A DNA stretch of 10,117 nt from a virus. A program made the position numbers and the translations under genes. Below are positions 1 through 10,117 of the stretch, piece by piece. The stretch lies in the UHGV virus genome UHGV-1654939. One strand, given 5' to 3'. How positions within the stretch are numbered: the first letter of the stretch is position 1; each line of letters starts with the position of its first letter. The notes under the pieces were generated by a model. The model searched no databases. It saw nothing but the letters and a program-made list of their open reading frames with translations, and was not told the DNA's origin.

Positions 1-1
1 T

Positions 2-179
2 ACTTTCGTGCTGTCGCGTATAGCAAGGGAAATATCCAGTATTCTCGACGGTATTCCTCTGTCGGTGCAGCGACGTTTTCCTGAGCTGGATAACCGGCAT
101 ATTGATTTCCTGAAACGGGATATCATCAAAGCCATGAACAAAGCAGCCGCGCTGGATGAACTGATACCGGGGTTGCTGA

Positions 180-205
<26 letters not shown>
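2..205 (+). CDS. nu1: Terminase small subunit, C-terminal part (5' end lies outside the window)
   Basis: Open frame entering from the window start (track ORF 8..205). The translation ...DNRHIDFLKRDIIKAMNKAAALDELIPGLLSEYIEQSD matches what I recall of the lambda Nu1 C-terminus. It overlaps the next gene by 26 nt (180-205), as in lambda. Confidence 0.88.
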
Positions 206-3886
<3,681 letters not shown>

Positions 3887-3906
<20 letters not shown>

Positions 3907-5206
3907 TCTCCCGCATATTGCCAGCATGGCCTTTAATGAGCCGCTGATGCTTGAACCCGCCTATGCGCGGGTTTTCTTTTGTGCGCTTGCAGGCCAGCTT
4001 GGGATCAGTCGCCTGACGGATGCGGTGTCCGGCGACAGTCTGACTGCCGGAGAGGCACCCGCGACGCTGGCGTTATCCGGTGATGATGACGGACCACGAC
4101 AGGCCCGCAGTTATCAGGTCATGAACGGCATCGCCGTGCTGCCGGTGTCCGGCACGCTGGTCAGCCGGACGCGGGCGCTGCAGCCGTATTCGGGGATGAC
4201 CGGTTACAACGGCATTATCGCCCGTCTGCAACAGGCTGCCAGCGACCCGATGGTGGACGGCATTCTGCTGGATATGGACACGCCCGGCGGAATGGTGGCA
4301 GGGGCATTTGACTGCGCTGACATCATCGCCCGTGTGCGTGACATAAAACCGGTATGGGCGCTTGCCAACGACATGAACTGCAGTGCAGGTCAGTTGCTTG
4401 CCAGTGCCGCCTCCCGGCGTCTGGTCACGCAGACCGCCCGGACAGGCTCCATCGGCGTCATGATGGCTCACAGTAATTACGGTGCTGCGCTGGAGAAACA
4501 GGGCGTGGAAATCACGCTGATTTACAGCGGCAGCCATAAGGTGGATGGCAACCCCTACAGCCATCTACCGGATGATGTCCGGGAAACACTGCAGTCCCGG
4601 ATGGATGCAACCCGCCGGATGTTTGCACAGAAGGTGTCGGCATATACCGGCCTGTCCGTGCAGGCTGTGCTGGATACCGAGGCTGCAGTGTACAGCGGTC
4701 AGGAGGCCATTGATGCCGGACTGGCTGATGAACTTGTTAACAGTACCGATGCGATCACCGTCATGCGTGATGCACTGGATGCACGTAAATCCCGTCTCTC
4801 AGGAGGGCGAATGACCAAAGAGACTCAATCAACAACTGTTTCAGCCACTGCTTCGCAGGCTGACGTTACTGACGTGGTGCCAGCGACGGAGGGCGAGAAC
4901 GCCAGCGCGGCGCAGCCGGACGTGAACGCGCAGATCACCGCAGCGGTTGCGGCAGAAAACAGCCGCATTATGGGGATCCTCAACTGTGAGGAGGCTCACG
5001 GACGCGAAGAACAGGCCCGCGTGCTGGCAGAAACCCCCGGTATGACCGTGGAAACGGCCCGCCGCATTCTGGCCGCAGCACCACAGAGTGCACAGGCGCG
5101 CAGTGACACTGCGCTGGATCGTCTGATGCAGGGGGCACCGGCACCGCTGGCTGCAGGTAACCCGGCATCTGATGCCGTTAACGATTTGCTGAACACACCA
5201 GTGTAA
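3887..5206 (+). CDS. C: Prohead protease / scaffold-processing protein gpC (S49 SppA-type peptidase), 439 aa
   Basis: Same frame as track ORF 3749..5206, but I place the start at GTG 3887-3889. It is preceded by GAGGAGG (3874-3880) and overlaps the end of B by 20 nt, giving the lambda length of 439 aa. The upstream ATG at 3749 would add 46 codons read across B in another frame. Confidence 0.88.
4601..5206 (+). CDS. nu3: Scaffolding protein Nu3, in-frame internal start within C, 201 aa
   Basis: ATG at 4601-4603 in the C frame, shared stop at 5204-5206. The translation MDATRRMFAQKVSAYTGLSVQAVLDTEAAVYSGQEAIDAGLADELV... matches lambda Nu3. The nested arrangement is established lambda biology. 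Confidence 0.75.
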   Translation: MDATRRMFAQKVSAYTGLSVQAVLDTEAAVYSGQEAIDAGLADELVNSTDAITVMRDALDARKSRLSGGRMTKETQSTTVSATASQADVTDVVPATEGENASAAQPDVNAQITAAVAAENSRIMGILNCEEAHGREEQARVLAETPGMTVETARRILAAAPQSAQARSDTALDRLMQGAPAPLAAGNPASDAVNDLLNTPV

Positions 5207-5215
5207 GGGATGTTT

Positions 5216-5548
5216 ATGACGAGCAAAGAAACCTTTACCCATTACCAGCCGCTGGGCAACAGTGACCCGGCTCATACCGCAACCGCGCCAGGCGGATTGA
5301 GTGCGAAAGCGCCTGCAATGACCCCGCTGATGCTGGACACCTCCAGCCGTAAGCTGGTTGCGTGGGATGGCACCACCGACGGTGCTGCCGTTGGCATTCT
5401 TGCAGTTGCTGCTGACCAGACCAGCACCACGCTGACGTTCTACAAGTCCGGCACGTTCCGTTATGAGGATGTGCTCTGGCCGGAGGCTGCCAGCGACGAG
5501 ACGAAAAAACGGACCGCGTTTGCCGGAACGGCAATCAGCATCGTTTAA
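5216..5548 (+). CDS. D: Head decoration protein gpD, 110 aa
   Basis: Track ORF 5210..5548. I take the second ATG (5216), giving [12 protein letters not shown]... and the lambda length of 110 aa. Confidence 0.94.
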
Positions 5549-5565
5549 CCTGACCCTTCATCACT

Positions 5566-5590
5566 AAAGGCCGCCTGTGCGGCTTTTTTT
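5566..5590 (+). terminator. GC stem-loop followed by a T-tract in the D-E intergenic spacer (terminator-like or RNA-stabilising hairpin)
   Basis: Stem GCCGC (5570-5574) and GCGGC (5579-5583) around loop CTGT, flanked by AAA on the 5' side and TTTTTTT (5584-5590) on the 3' side. A second T-run follows before the E start. Confidence 0.4.
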
Positions 5591-5603
5591 ACGGGATTTT
5601 TTT

Positions 5604-6629
5604 ATGTCGATGTACACAACCGCCCAGCTGCTGGCGGCAAATGAGCAGAAATTTAAGTTTGATCCGCTGTTTCTGCGTCTCTTTTTCCGTGAGAGCTATC
5701 CCTTCACCACGGAAAAAGTCTATCTCTCACAAATTCCGGGACTGGTAAACATGGCGCTGTACGTTTCGCCGATTGTTTCCGGTGAGGTTATCCGTTCCCG
5801 TGGCGGCTCCACCTCTGAATTTACGCCGGGATATGTCAAACCCAAGCATGAGGTGAATCCGCAGATGACCCTGCGTCGCCTGCCGGATGAAGATCCGCAG
5901 AATCTGGCGGACCCGGCTTACCGTCGCCGTCGCATCATCATGCAGAACATGCGTGACGAAGAGCTGGCCATTGCTCAGGTCGAAGAGATGCAGGCAGTTT
6001 CTGCCGTGCTCAAGGGCAAATACACCATGACCGGTGAAGCCTTCGATCCGGTTGAGGTGGATATGGGCCGCAGTGCGGCGAACAACATCACGCAGTCCGG
6101 CGGCACGGAGTGGAGCAAGCGTGACAAGTCCACGTATGACCCGACCGACGATATCGAAGCCTACGCGCTGAACGCCAGCGGTGTGGTGAATATCATCGTG
6201 TTCGATCCGAAAGGCTGGGCGCTGTTCCGTTCCTTCAAAGCCGTCAGGGAGAAGCTGGATACCCGTCGCGGCTCTCATTCCGAACTGGAGACAGCGGTAA
6301 AAGACCTGGGCAAAGCGGTGTCCTATAAGGGGATGTATGGCGATGTGGCCATCGTCGTGTATTCCGGACAGTACGTGGAAAACGGCGTCAAAAAGAACTT
6401 CCTGCCGGACAACACGATGGTGCTGGGGAACACTCAGGCACGCGGTCTGCGCACCTATGGCTGCATTCAGGATGCGGACGCACAGCGCGAAGGCATTAAC
6501 GCCTCTGCCCGTTACCCGAAAAACTGGGTGACCACCGGCGATCCGGCGCGTGAGTTCACCATGATTCAGTCAGCACCGCTGATGCTGCTGGCTGATCCTG
6601 ATGAGTTCGTGTCTGTACAACTGGCGTAA
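5604..6629 (+). CDS. E: Major capsid protein gpE, 341 aa
   Basis: Track ORF 5577..6629. The start is taken at ATG 5604 (MSMYTTAQLLAANEQKF...), giving the lambda length of 341 aa. The longer track start would run through the upstream hairpin. Confidence 0.96.
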   Translation: MSMYTTAQLLAANEQKFKFDPLFLRLFFRESYPFTTEKVYLSQIPGLVNMALYVSPIVSGEVIRSRGGSTSEFTPGYVKPKHEVNPQMTLRRLPDEDPQNLADPAYRRRRIIMQNMRDEELAIAQVEEMQAVSAVLKGKYTMTGEAFDPVEVDMGRSAANNITQSGGTEWSKRDKSTYDPTDDIEAYALNASGVVNIIVFDPKGWALFRSFKAVREKLDTRRGSHSELETAVKDLGKAVSYKGMYGDVAIVVYSGQYVENGVKKNFLPDNTMVLGNTQARGLRTYGCIQDADAQREGINASARYPKNWVTTGDPAREFTMIQSAPLMLLADPDEFVSVQLA

Positions 6630-6631
6630 TC

Positions 6632-6653
6632 ATGGCCCTTCGGGGCCATTTTC
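6632..6653 (+). terminator. Perfect 7-bp hairpin with a TTCG tetraloop in the E-FI spacer (terminator-like or mRNA-stabilising)
   Basis: ATGGCCC (6632-6638), loop TTCG (6639-6642), GGGCCAT (6643-6649), then TTTTCTCTCT. It sits immediately after the E stop (6627-6629) and before the FI ribosome-binding site GGAGG. Confidence 0.4.
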
Positions 6654-6670
6654 TCTCTGTGGAGGAGTTC

Positions 6671-7069
6671 ATGACGAAAGATGAACTGATTGCCCGTCTT
6701 CAGGAGCTGGGTGAGCAACTGAACCGCGATGTCAGTTTGACGGGAACGAAAGAAGAACTGGCGCTTCGTGTGGCAGAGCTGGAAGAGGAGCTTGATGACA
6801 CGGATGAAACTGCCGGTCAGGACACCCCTCTCAGCCGGGAAAATGTGCTGACCGGGCATGAAAATGAGGTGGTATCAGCGCAGCCGGATACCGTGATTCA
6901 GGATACGGCTGAACTGGTCACGGTCGTGGCACTGGTGACGCTGCATACTGATGCACTTCACGCCACGCGGGATGAACCTGTGGCATTTGTGCTGCCGGGA
7001 ACGGCGTTTCGTGTCTCTGCCGGTGTGGCAGCCGAAATGACAGAACGTGGCCTGGCCAGAATGCAATAA
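6671..7069 (+). CDS. FI: DNA-packaging / head assembly protein gpFI, 132 aa
   Basis: Track ORF 6632..7069. The start is taken at ATG 6671, which is preceded by GGAGGAG (6661-6667). MTKDELIARLQELGEQLNRD... matches lambda FI. Confidence 0.92.
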   Translation: MTKDELIARLQELGEQLNRDVSLTGTKEELALRVAELEEELDDTDETAGQDTPLSRENVLTGHENEVVSAQPDTVIQDTAELVTVVALVTLHTDALHATRDEPVAFVLPGTAFRVSAGVAAEMTERGLARMQ

Positions 7070-7080
7070 CGGGAGGCGCT

Positions 7081-7434
7081 GTGGCTGATTTCGATAACCT
7101 GTTCGATGCTGCCATTGCTCGCGCTGATGAAACGATACGCGGGTACATGGGAACGTCAGCCACCATGACATCCGGTGAGCAGTCCGGTGCTGTGATACGT
7201 GGTGTTTTTGATGACCCTGAAAATATCAGCTATGCCGGACAGGGCGTGCGCGTTGAAGGCTCCAGCCCGTCCCTGTTTGTCCGGACTGATGATGTGCGGC
7301 AGCTGCGGCGTGGAGACACGCTGACCATCGGTGAGGAAAACTTCTGGATAGACCGGATTTCGCCGGATGATGGCGGAAGTTGTCATCTCTGGCTTGGACG
7401 GGGCGTACCGCCTGCCGTTAACCGTCGCCGCTGA
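7081..7434 (+). CDS. FII: Head completion / head-tail connector protein gpFII, 117 aa
   Basis: Track ORF 7081..7434. The start codon is GTG, preceded by GGGAGG. MADFDNLFDAAIARADETIRGYMG... and the 117-aa length are as in lambda FII. Confidence 0.92.
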   Translation: MADFDNLFDAAIARADETIRGYMGTSATMTSGEQSGAVIRGVFDDPENISYAGQGVRVEGSSPSLFVRTDDVRQLRRGDTLTIGEENFWIDRISPDDGGSCHLWLGRGVPPAVNRRR

Positions 7435-7445
7435 AAGGGGGATGT

Positions 7446-7808
7446 ATGGCCATAAAAGGTCTTGAGCAGGCCGTTGAAAACCTCAGCCGTATCAGCAGAA
7501 CGGCGGTGCCCGGTGCCGCCGCAATGGCCATTAACCGCGTTGCTTCATCCGCGATATCGCAGTCGGTGGTACAGGTTGCCCGTGAGACAAAGGTACGCCG
7601 GAAACTGGTAAAGGAAAGGGCCAGGCTGAAAAGGGCCACGGTCAAAAATCCGCAGGCCAGAATCAAGGTTAACCGGGGGGATTTGCCCGTAATAAAGCTG
7701 GGTAACGCGCGGGTTGTCCTGTCCCGACGCAGGCGTCGTAAAAAGGGGCAGCGTTCAGCCCTGAAAGGTGGCGGCAGTGTGCTTGTGGTGGGTAGAGTCG
7801 ACTCGTAA
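7446..7808 (+). pseudogene. Z: Truncated tail-completion gene Z: about 116 lambda-like codons, then 4 unrelated codons (RVDS) and a stop
   Basis: Track ORF 7446..7808 is 120 aa, against 192 aa for lambda gpZ as I recall it. The start is 11 nt after the FII stop, as in lambda. MAIKGLEQAVENLSRIS... is Z-like up to ...GGGSVLVVG (through nt 7793), after which the frame ends at TAA 7806-7808. Confidence 0.8.
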
Positions 7809-7833
7809 GGTTAGGGATTCAGATTATGCGAAC

Positions 7834-8916
7834 ATGCAAACGCTGATTAACAGCGACACAAAACGTATATACGTTCGCTTTGTTGTTAATGGAAACTGGA
7901 CAGCGTGGAGTCAGGTTGTTGTTTCCGGATGGAATCAGGATATAACTGTCAGGTCGTTAACCACATCTAGTCCGGTAAAATCTGGCGGAGGGCGAATTGA
8001 TGTCCTTGGAAGCACGTCAGACTATAGCAAAATGGATTGCTTTGTACGTGGGTTTGATAGCACCGGTAATTCTCTCGCGTGGGCGTTGGGTTCATCAGCC
8101 GGCGTAAGTAAGATGCTGTCGCTAAAAAATTTCTTTAGCGGAGCTGAGATACTGTTAAATGGTAATGACGGCGCGGTTCAACTCAAAACAGGTGCTGTTA
8201 ACGGGGCTACAGCGCAGGCGCTCACTATCAACAGGAATGAGGTTAACTCAACCGTTGATTTAACCCTTACAAAGCAATCAGGGACTGGTAATCGTTTTGT
8301 TTTACAGAACTCAGGTAATGCAGAACTACCGTTTTCTGTCAGGGTGTGGGGTTCCAGTACTCGACAAAACGTTTTTGAGGTTGGCACGTCTGCTGCGTAT
8401 CTGTTTTATGCGCAAAAAACGTCAGCAGGCCAGTTGTTTGATGTAAATGGCGCTATTAATTGCACAACGCTGAATCAGTCATCAGACCGCGACCTTAAAG
8501 ACGATATTCTCGTTATCAGCGACGCGACGAAAGCAATCCGTAAAATGAACGGATACACCTACACGCTCAGGGAAAACGGGATGCCTTATGCTGGCGTTAT
8601 TGCACAGGAAGTAATGGAGGCGATACCAGAAGCTGTGGGATCGTTTACTCATTACGGTGAAGAGTTGCAAGGCCCGACCGTTGACGGCAACGAGCTACGC
8701 GAAGAAACGCGCTATCTTAATGTTGACTACGCCGCCGTGACGGGTTTACTTGTTCAGGTCGCCCGTGAAACAGATGATCGCGTTACCGCGCTGGAAGAGG
8801 AAAACACAACGCTACGTCAAAATCTGGCAACAGCAGACACCCGGATCAGCACTCTGGAAAATCAGGTAAGCGAACTGGTTGCACTTGTCCGGCAGTTAAC
8901 AGGAAGCGAACATTGA
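7834..8916 (+). CDS. Tail fibre C-terminal fragment: distal receptor-binding region plus intramolecular chaperone (peptidase S74-like) domain. It lacks an N-terminal tail-attachment part and may be a pseudogene.
   Basis: Track ORF 7768..8916. The first 22 codons are Z sequence read in another frame, so I take the first in-frame ATG after the junction (7834). The motif SSDRDLKDDI begins at 8479, followed by GYTYTL and a C-terminal heptad-like segment (TALEEENTTLRQNLATADTRISTLENQVSELVALV). This is the characteristic layout of self-cleaving chaperone domains of phage fibres and tailspikes. There is no convincing ribosome-binding site. Confidence 0.6.
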   Translation: MQTLINSDTKRIYVRFVVNGNWTAWSQVVVSGWNQDITVRSLTTSSPVKSGGGRIDVLGSTSDYSKMDCFVRGFDSTGNSLAWALGSSAGVSKMLSLKNFFSGAEILLNGNDGAVQLKTGAVNGATAQALTINRNEVNSTVDLTLTKQSGTGNRFVLQNSGNAELPFSVRVWGSSTRQNVFEVGTSAAYLFYAQKTSAGQLFDVNGAINCTTLNQSSDRDLKDDILVISDATKAIRKMNGYTYTLRENGMPYAGVIAQEVMEAIPEAVGSFTHYGEELQGPTVDGNELREETRYLNVDYAAVTGLLVQVARETDDRVTALEEENTTLRQNLATADTRISTLENQVSELVALVRQLTGSEH

Positions 8917-9099
8917 TATCCTTCAAGCTCTGAAGGAGGCTGTTCCCGGTACGTTCAGACTGTTGTTGAGCTGGAAATCGCAACGGAGGAAGAGAAAGCG
9001 TTACTGGCCGCATGGAAAAAGTATCGGGTGTTGCTGAACCGTGTTGATACATCAACTGCACCGGATATTGAGTGGCCTGCTGTCCCTGTTATGGAGTAA
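8917..9099 (+). pseudogene. tfa: Tail fibre assembly protein (tfa-type) 3' remnant, with no start codon of its own
   Basis: Directly after the fibre TGA (8914-8916) and in the same frame, the translation runs ...[44 protein letters not shown] to TAA 9097-9099. I recognise this ending as the conserved C-terminus of lambda-type Tfa proteins. Exactly where the tfa homology begins is not determined. Confidence 0.5.
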
Positions 9100-9443
9100 T
9101 CGTTTTGTGATATGCCGCAGACACGTCGTATGCAGGAACGTGCTGCGGCTGGCTGGTGAACTTTCAATAGTGCGAGTATTGAATGATTTCCAGCTGTTAT
9201 CGATTTTATGTGTTTTTTGCATGAGGGGATTTCCACCACCTCCCACCGACCATCTAAGACTTTATGCCACTGTCCCTAGGACTGCTATGTACTAGGAGCG
9301 GATGTTAAACTCAGACTCGTTTCAGCTACATTGCGTTTTGAATAATATTTCATCATAATAACTCTTTGAAAAATGTGATCTTTTCATTTATAACACTGAT
9401 GACTTGCTTATCTCATTGGGATATCGGAGGAGAATACTTAACT

Positions 9444-9572
9444 ATGACAAGCCCGATTATTATGACACTGGCTATATTATATAGATTGATATTAAAATGT
9501 AGGATTAGGTTCTTGCCAAGGTGTCAAGATTTACAGATAGGTTTAAAACCATATAAATATGTTTTACGGTGA
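9444..9572 (+). CDS. Hypothetical small hydrophobic peptide, 42 aa (possible single-helix membrane peptide)
   Basis: ATG 9444 is preceded by GGAGGAG (9426-9432). The peptide MTSPIIMTLAILYRLILKCRIRFLPRCQDLQIGLKPYKYVLR has a hydrophobic N-half and a basic C-half. It is the 3' part of track ORF 9366..9572. No homology is known to me, and it could be chance in AT-rich DNA. Confidence 0.2.
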   Translation: MTSPIIMTLAILYRLILKCRIRFLPRCQDLQIGLKPYKYVLR

Positions 9573-9612
9573 GATACAATACATATTGTAAGGCATAAAC
9601 GCTTGGTAAAAT
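9531..9612 (+). promoter_or_regulatory. Candidate sigma70-type promoter elements upstream of the 9637 ORF
   Basis: TTACAG (9531-9536) lies 17 nt before TAAATA (9554-9559). TTGTAA (9586-9591) lies 15 nt before TAAAAT (9607-9612). These are hexamer matches by eye in AT-rich DNA, where such matches are frequent. Confidence 0.2.
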
Positions 9613-9636
9613 TTTAATTATTGGAAGAAGCTAATC

Positions 9637-10117
9637 ATGGAACCCATATCAATTACAGTGGCAACTTATGTAGCAACTAAACTTATTGATCAATTCATCT
9701 CTCAAGAAGGATATGGTTGTATTAAGAAAGCATTATTCCCCCAAAAAAGATACGTGGATAGATTATATCAACTAATTGAAGAGACGGCAATTGAGTTTGA
9801 AGAAACATATCCAGTAGAAAGTGGAGCAATACCATTTTATCATTCCGAACCATTGTTTGAGATGTTGAATGAGCACATCTTGTTTAAAGAGTTCCCTGAC
9901 AAAGAGATATTATTAGACAAGTTCAAAGAATATCCAAGTATCACTCCCCCAACTCAACAACAACTCAGCCTTTTTTATGAGATGTTATCATTAAAAATCA
10001 ATAATTGTTCGAAGTTAAAAAAGCTACATATCGAAGAAACGTATAAAGAAAAAATATTCGATATTAATGAAGAGCTCATTCAAGTTAAACTTATTTTACG
10101 GTCTATAGATGAGAAAC
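9637..10117 (+). CDS. Hypothetical protein, N-terminal 160 aa or more (continues beyond the window); unassigned
   Basis: I translated this by hand from ATG 9637 and found no stop codon through nt 10117: MEPISITVATYVATKLIDQFISQEGYGCIKKALFPQKRYVDRLYQLIEETAIEFEETYPVESGAIPFYHSEPLFEMLNEHILFKEFPDKEILLDKFKEYPSITPPTQQQLSLFYEMLSLKINNCSKLKKLHIEETYKEKIFDINEELIQVKLILRSIDEK. It is absent from the ORF track, presumably because it has no stop in the window. A weak Shine-Dalgarno-like GGAAGAAG sits at 9623-9630. Codon usage fits the local ~32% GC. Confidence 0.6.
   Translation, partial: MEPISITVATYVATKLIDQFISQEGYGCIKKALFPQKRYVDRLYQLIEETAIEFEETYPVESGAIPFYHSEPLFEMLNEHILFKEFPDKEILLDKFKEYPSITPPTQQQLSLFYEMLSLKINNCSKLKKLHIEETYKEKIFDINEELIQVKLILRSIDEK

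Follow-up and report, generated by a model that had tools for sequence, protein, structure and literature searches.

The window, by which we mean the whole stretch of DNA analysed here, is an entire metagenome contig (ENA ERZ773255 NODE_3218; 10,117 bp, k-mer coverage 2.8, no Ns) in which the head and packaging genes of a lambda-like phage run into the tail-completion gene Z, break off inside it and give way to the distal part of a side-tail-fibre gene. The contig starts inside Nu1, with cos, the late promoter and the early region all outside the window, and it includes no chromosomal flank. Its features are as follows.

8–205, + strand: Nu1 (terminase small subunit), 3' part, truncated by the contig start; collinear with lambda 532–736, and in the ORF list.
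180–2105, + strand: A, large subunit of the terminase, complete (641 aa), matching lambda gpA at 631/641 residues, with Pfam GpA_ATPase and GpA_nuclease.
2102–2308, + strand: W, head-tail adaptor, complete (68 aa), matching lambda gpW at 68/68 residues.
2305–3906, + strand: B, portal protein, complete (533 aa), matching lambda gpB at 528/533 residues.
3887–5206, + strand: C, S49 protease/scaffold with Nu3 nested, complete (439 aa), matching lambda gpC at 433/439 residues.
5216–5548, + strand: D, head decoration protein, complete (110 aa), matching lambda gpD at 109/110 residues.
5604–6629, + strand: E, major capsid protein, complete (341 aa), matching lambda gpE at 337/341 residues.
6671–7069, + strand: FI, packaging chaperone, complete (132 aa), matching lambda at 125/132 residues.
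7081–7434, + strand: FII, head closure protein, complete (117 aa), matching lambda at 113/117 residues.
7399–8363, no strand: patch of the allele found in a DLP12-type prophage relic, by SNP tables, remaining relic-like with few differences out to ~8692.
7446–7808, + strand: Z', the tail-completion gene Z for 116 native codons, followed by four foreign ones (RVDS) and TAA; by alignment and Pfam.
7792–7794, no strand: deletion joint, a 3-bp GTA microhomology of Z and stf with one copy kept; by alignment.
7795–8916, + strand: 'stf, the 3'-terminal 1.1 kb of a gene for a side tail fibre, covering the knob and the S74 intramolecular chaperone; by blast and Pfam Peptidase_S74.
8953–9148, + strand: tfa', 3'-end remnant of the tail-fibre assembly gene; tblastn to lambda Tfa aa 147–194, blastn to lambda 22412–22606, and RefSeq annotation of EC25 and AB66.
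9637–10117, + strand: 5' end of the AVAST type 2 anti-phage gene avs2, carried as prophage cargo and truncated by the contig end; 100% to EC25.

Positions 1–7794 are collinear with lambda 532–8325 (97.8% identity, 0 gaps), the genes standing in the order Nu1-A-W-B-C/Nu3-D-E-FI-FII-Z of the lambda late (head/packaging) module, and all eight complete head/packaging ORFs have the lengths of their lambda counterparts, with 95–100% amino-acid identity to the lambda proteins. Collinearity from Nu1 to Z, again with no gaps and at 97.8–98.8% DNA identity, extends to the intact prophages (MY1-8, AB66 and ETEC6) as well as to lambda, and the head genes are ordinary lambda alleles that lie ~1–2% from the intact-prophage versions. 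What sets the intact prophages apart is the remainder of the morphogenesis region: in them Z, U, V, G, T, H, M, L, K, I, J, lom and stf are all complete, and ~14.0–14.1 kb of this is absent in the window.

The reading frame of Z' ends at a TAA at 7806–7808, giving a product of 120 aa that is without the C-terminal 76 residues of the protein and that Pfam Minor_tail_Z matches over profile positions 1–115 of 190. An earlier note, made from the letters alone, had described Z as lambda-like for about 116 codons followed by four unrelated ones, and had given a length of 192 aa for lambda gpZ; alignment and Pfam bear out the former, with RVDS and the stop codon as the foreign end, and the length is correct. 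That note had also reported the tail block from U to J as missing and the distal end of a tail fibre, in another frame, as the next coding sequence, and both observations stand. In tblastn searches of the window with lambda tail proteins, the sole matches were the N-terminal part of Z and the last 48 aa of tfa (8953–9096), with 0 matches to U, V, G, T, H, M, L, K, I, J, lom or the N-terminal part of stf; since the window is a whole contig with its own ends, this absence applies to the window and does not extend to the DNA beyond it. The fibre sequence that follows, without a fibre N-terminal part and recognizable as C-terminal 'stf by its Peptidase_S74 domain, matches the ends of intact stf genes, that of E. 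coli HS among them, with 99.3–99.4% identity. Its frame, which differs from that of Z', is open from 7768 with a first ATG at 7834 and encodes the C-terminal 360–382 aa; inspection of the sequence before this ATG revealed no Shine-Dalgarno motif. An in-frame Z-Stf fusion was considered and rejected, as the frames differ and Z' terminates at 7806–7808. Two SNPs in stf (8655 and 8673) are private to the window, both at third codon positions. Further downstream, a spacer of 40% GC separates tfa' from the first 480 nt of avs2 (32% GC), and the whole of 8900–10117 is 100% identical to EC25, whose avs2 starts at the corresponding position, and 99.9% identical to AB66.

Aligned with the intact Z of MY1-8 and the intact stf of E. 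coli HS, the joint could be placed to the base, with Z continuing through 7794 and stf starting from 7792. It is clean and contains no inserted DNA, and it corresponds to lambda nt 8325; the alignment to lambda and the search for microhomology that the earlier note had recommended thus yielded both a breakpoint and a shared GTA at 7792–7794. Both parental copies of this GTA are preserved in strain Res13-Lact-PEB20-37-A (hereafter Res13; locus L015), at 14394–14396 and 16521–16523, so that the signature of a microhomology deletion is present in full: a direct repeat at both endpoints, one copy left and no insertion. Inserted sequence is absent, which led us to reject an insertion sequence or att site at the joint. 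A SalI site (GTCGAC) lies at 7798–7803, 4 bp downstream of the joint, and the same site is native to stf in HS, MY1-8 and Res13; its interpretation as a cloning scar was rejected because GTCGAC is native stf sequence. Functionally, and as judged from the sequence, the joint is without function, Z' is a dead 120-aa stub, and a tail could not be made from the DNA of the window.

We looked for the joint in 5,426 complete E. coli genomes (BLAST), of which 3,637, or about two thirds, carry a lambda-like FI-FII-Z region, and in an index of exact proteins from ENA and Logan assemblies queried with the 120-aa Z' and the 360-aa 'stf product. Only one complete genome spans the joint, that of strain ES2 from a frog farm, with 99.1% identity over 7000–8900. 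The exact 120-aa Z' is indexed in 25 blocks of the ENA and Logan assemblies, and 24 contigs with it, from other assemblies, were read; the 360-aa 'stf product returned its own contig alone. An exact-pattern scan with the 29-nt joint was negative for GTDB species-representative genomes, JGI metagenome contigs and IMG/VR; all carriers besides the window came from the complete-genome BLAST and the protein index. Head module and joint occur together in just three ENA metagenome contigs (the window and two others, L010 and L013), and in 0 of the 5,426 complete E. coli genomes. A different left flank, that of a prophage relic, adjoins the joint in ES2, in one ENA contig of 177x coverage and in the Logan contigs listed that extend upstream of FI; among the contigs listed that reach upstream of FI, all except the window, L010 and L013 have this relic flank. 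The joint has a single origin, and it is known biology in the sense that it is already in RefSeq, as annotated pseudogenes in ES2.

In ES2, the joint belongs to a cryptic prophage beside tRNA-Arg and fimZ, upstream of cusS, and the corresponding relic of Res13 likewise lies between argU/fimZ and the cus/appY region; argU is the site of the DLP12 prophage (PMC6379469). The ES2 relic retains int', exo-bet-gam, a Q gene, a porin, lysis genes, an Nu1'/E' stub, FI, FII, Z', 'stf and tfa'. Its head genes A–E are gone, the Nu1' stub being fused to the last 90 nt of E, and its 'stf carries a 1-bp deletion of its own (a frameshift) at window position 8050. In Res13 this relic, at the same site, keeps Z and U intact ahead of a longer 'stf, and it too is without genes A–E and V–J; its U/'stf joint removed the interval from V (~codon 3) through stf nt ~1162 and shows a 7-bp overlap. 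Flanking the joint, ES2 and Res13 have identities of 99.92% and 99.89% to each other, and what distinguishes them is a single 2,127-bp deletion with a GTA copy at either end. Judged by the spacing of their Z and stf matches, another two complete genomes, Res13-Lact-PEB21-38-A and 300081, have the Res13 arrangement. The third member of the series, ETEC6, is a near-complete lambda-like prophage at the same site, adjoining cusS, whose FII, Z and U proteins are identical to those of the relic. A stepwise series is observed, from a full prophage (ETEC6-type), through loss of the heads and most tail genes (Res13-type), to a further loss of 2.1 kb (ES2-type). Evolutionarily, this is the pattern of DLP12-type relics (K-12 DLP12 and the variants in ES2, Res13 and 300081), in which morphogenesis genes are lost stepwise by deletions at small homologies.

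Compared with the ES2 relic, the window has the same Z'/'stf joint in a different setting. From 7399 to 8363 it shows no difference from the joint-carrying sequences L006, L007, L010 and L013, nor from ES2 save the 8050 deletion of the latter; relic-type contigs match the patch over the part they cover (to 7821–7846), and 7399–7794 is a 100% match to ES2, Res13 and ETEC6. On either side, the likeness ends. ES2 has lost A–E through the Nu1'/E' joint and has another FI-FII allele and another right flank, whereas the window has the full head module on the left and tfa'-avs2 on the right, and neither the relic Nu1'/E' joint nor the relic FI-FII allele is found in it. By SNP tables, FI is of the MY1-8-like type of intact prophages and not of the relic type, as is FII as far as position 7398: the window differs from the relic by 30 SNPs in 6539–7398, where it has the MY1-8-like allele, and from the MY1-8 allele of Z by 15 SNPs in 7498–7778. 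The left allele switch accordingly falls within 7398–7498, a 99-bp interval common to the window, L010 and L013, and the right switch, to the EC25 allele, is near 8693–8744, with 100% EC25 identity from 8838 to the end. AB66, an intact lambda-like prophage, has a layout of lambda heads, tail genes, stf, tfa' and avs2; given this layout and the intact-prophage alleles of both flanks, the window resembles such a prophage in which the Z-to-stf interval has been replaced by the 1.3-kb patch of the relic. Patchworks of two alleles across FI-FII-Z are themselves common in complete genomes and are visible in AB66, ETEC6 and lambda. The particular haplotypes of the window are not among them: over 7200–7700 there was no exact match in the 3,637 complete genomes with the region (best 99.2%), no complete genome exceeded 98.7% over 6330–7794 or 99.0% over 8423–9400, and the left part of L010 reached 98.5% at best. 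These searches identified neither a chimera parent nor a recombinant isolate.

Taken together, we conclude that the Z/stf break is a natural deletion scar of a defective, decaying lambda-like E. coli prophage, a reading to which we assign a probability of roughly 0.85. The deletion would have joined codon 116 of Z to a point of stf ~1.1 kb from the end of that gene, at the GTA direct repeat, probably by RecA-independent illegitimate recombination through replication slippage or microhomology-mediated end joining. From the arrangement in ES2, the joint would have arisen, and in any case is fixed, in the DLP12-type relic as a 2,127-bp loss that followed the loss of A–E and V–J. Of the origins offered by the earlier note, the defective prophage was right; the history that the note implied, with one break in a complete late operon taking out the whole tail block, needs correction, as the deletion in ES2 took place in a relic already without A–E and V–J.

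How the scar came to stand beside a complete head module is a separate question. Two relic deletions occur in three combinations (Res13, ES2 and the window), which, barring recurrent identical deletions, calls for either recombination or artefact. The most likely reading, on which we would place slightly better than even odds, is that the window is a genuine recombinant with the relic joint beside a complete head module. Homologous exchange in FII/Z and in stf could have carried the relic joint into a head-intact prophage, or brought head genes back beside the joint; such an exchange, whose direction we infer, would have removed ~14 kb of tail genes at once, leaving a defective prophage that is head-plus and tail-minus. 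Lambdoid phages are documented to recombine with DLP12 (PMC9119081; PMC6379469). On the side of the recombinant are three independent assemblies with the same switch interval, the cleanness of the blocks and the natural patchwork of FI-FII-Z; on the other side, the arrangement is known from metagenome contigs alone, with the window at 2.8x, and its haplotype over 7200–7700 and its 'stf product are unmatched. The linkage of the heads to the joint is uncertain because it is seen in only three metagenome contigs and alleles switch at 7398–7498 and near 8693–8744. The earlier claim that the element can package DNA and build heads but no tail of its own depends on this linkage and needs correction accordingly, although the window does have full head genes and no tail genes. 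Even with a real linkage, DNA-filled lambda-type heads made upon transcription of the late operon would be the most that the element could produce, and nothing suggests selection for a head-only lifestyle.

The competing account that we take most seriously, though we hold it to be the less probable, is an assembly chimera, in which the joint is real but the heads (1–7398) and the tfa'-avs2 end (~8700 on) come from an intact prophage and the 1.3-kb middle from an ES2-type relic, the assembler having crossed between them via the common FII/Z and stf sequences; there would then be no head-only element here. The contig coverage of 2.8x would suit such an error, both flanks fit one known layout, that of AB66, across which the relic patch forms a shortcut, and a potential partner for the FI-FII-Z region is present in about two thirds of E. 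coli genomes. The head-plus-joint form, moreover, is confined to three ENA metagenome contigs while the Logan contigs listed, the 177x ENA contig and ES2 have the relic form, and the window haplotype and 'stf product were seen nowhere else in the sets searched. Against a chimera, no complete genome joins the window FII alleles at 7380 and 7398 to the relic Z allele, so the stretch identical between the relic and any known partner of this type is only 99 bp (7399–7497), and EC25-like stf shares only ~52 bp with the relic near 8693–8744, while contig names with k127 and k119, to judge from the names, suggest word sizes above 99 in two of the three assemblies. The correct branch must also have been lost at two forks, independently in three samples; the allele blocks are clean rather than interleaved, and the private SNPs at 8655 and 8673 fall at third codon positions, as a real allele would lead one to expect. 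The account implicit in the earlier note, one deletion of ~14 kb in an intact parent with window-type FI-FII, relic-type Z and HS-type stf, from which the joint later passed into a Res13-type relic to give ES2, is unlikely. The sequence of the joint alone cannot tell a 2.1-kb from a 14-kb loss (its endpoints are 14,017 bp apart in MY1-8 and ~14.09 kb in AB66), natural allele patchwork makes such a parent plausible, and ETEC6 is a full prophage with the relic Z allele at argU; but the parental haplotype is absent from the 3,637 complete genomes (of 5,426) carrying the region, whereas each intermediate on the alternative path (ETEC6-, Res13- and ES2-type) is represented among known strains, the flanks being 99.9% identical.

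In lambda, heads and tails are built independently and then join of their own accord, and the window retains eight full-length head/packaging ORFs, including W and FII, whose products ready the head for the tail. A functional head-only element under selection, packaging its own DNA into lambda-type heads and taking tails from a co-resident lambdoid helper, can thus be envisaged, in the manner of capsid-forming PICIs (cf-PICIs), satellites that encode heads, for which such a tail-borrowing lifestyle is described (bioRxiv 10.1101/2025.02.11.637232) and which the window resembles in having heads and packaging genes without tails. We nevertheless regard this as very improbable, and the helper-dependent option of the earlier note as unsupported. 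Whereas a cf-PICI would be expected to have capsid and packaging genes distinct from those of helper phages, those of the window are the lambda genes themselves, ordinary alleles ~1–2% from intact prophages (97.8–98.8% DNA identity) whose intactness may reflect only a recent event. Its tail-less state, unlike theirs, is an out-of-frame deletion scar common to a relic without head genes A–E, the ES2 copy of which was later frameshifted in 'stf; the arrangement is rare and unseen in isolates, and a satellite-type module, for which one would look to integrase, regulation and replication genes in an element of about 10–15 kb, is not found in the window, outside of which the early region lies. Least probable by far, to the point of being negligible, is a laboratory-built lambda deletion such as a SalI-based cloning derivative. 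The GTCGAC 4 bp from the joint might hint at one, but this site is native to stf in HS, MY1-8 and Res13, identity to lambda is only 97.8%, lambda has a different type of stf from the S74-bearing one here, and the joint recurs in a frog-farm isolate and in gut metagenomes. The constructed deletion that the earlier note had entertained is refuted on these grounds, the wild isolate and 24 contigs included.

With the natural deletion scar as the preferred reading, the joint itself matters little, as deletion scars are commonplace in lambdoid prophages. Its modest value is as a clear illustration of how a prophage at the argU/DLP12 site decays step by step, leading from ETEC6 to Res13 to ES2. It also illustrates that, in a low-coverage metagenome contig, a joint can sit on a short patch of one element between the alleles of another, and inferences of "heads but no tails" drawn from gene content consequently need read-level support. 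Were the head-only reading to be true, a satellite-like lifestyle could arise directly from prophage decay, by one recombination with a cryptic relic. If the recombinant is real, it would illustrate how an intact prophage can be disabled when a cryptic relic passes its deletion on to it.

In the argU relic, the DLP12-type cryptic prophage of E. coli, the older tail deletion joined V, at about codon 3, to nucleotide ~1162 of the side-tail-fibre gene stf with a 7-bp overlap (L015, strain Res13, NZ_CP062853, 15029-15035), and the last 90 nt of E are fused to a Nu1' stub (L001, strain ES2); small-homology deletions, at least three of them and each separate, have thus eroded the relic. The right flank at the DLP12 site is replaced in ES2. 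Downstream of tfa', the remnant of the tail-fibre assembly gene, this strain carries a type VI secretion (T6SS) vgrG/tssI gene followed by cusS (L001 22154-24145), unlike Res13 (L015 17883-21365) and K-12, which both carry ybcY (methyltransferase), appY and ompT there.

Strain-to-strain mosaicism is high in the 3' region of stf (window 8251-8750; compared with stf of AB66, L016, and EC25, L004). Over 7792-8250 and again from 8751 onward, the intact lambda-like prophage AB66 hardly differs from the window, but it has 68 mismatches in between, whereas stf of EC25 shows the opposite pattern. The receptor-binding knob seems to undergo reshuffling in blocks a few hundred bp long. Two C-for-T differences in the window, at 8655 and 8673, both at third codon positions of stf, are absent from all other sequences compared and may tag the true parental allele for the right-hand part of the window.

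Toward the right end of the window, GC content, which is 57% in the head genes, drops to 32% at avs2, and the tfa' remnant lies directly upstream of the 5' end of that gene:

9149-9636, spacer ahead of avs2
9637-10117, 5' end of avs2, an AVAST type 2 anti-phage gene

In EC25, a P4-like satellite-type module (integrase, Icd-like gene and primase), followed by a SIR2-family gene, lies just past avs2 (L004 25788-34009), a neighbourhood in which defence and mobile elements appear to be stacked.

The order stf-tfa'-avs2 closes prophages that differ in both head type and chromosomal site: AB66 has a lambda-type head, EC25 an HK97-type protease-capsid fusion. The arrangement resembles a mobile defence-cargo slot located at the right end of lambdoid prophages.
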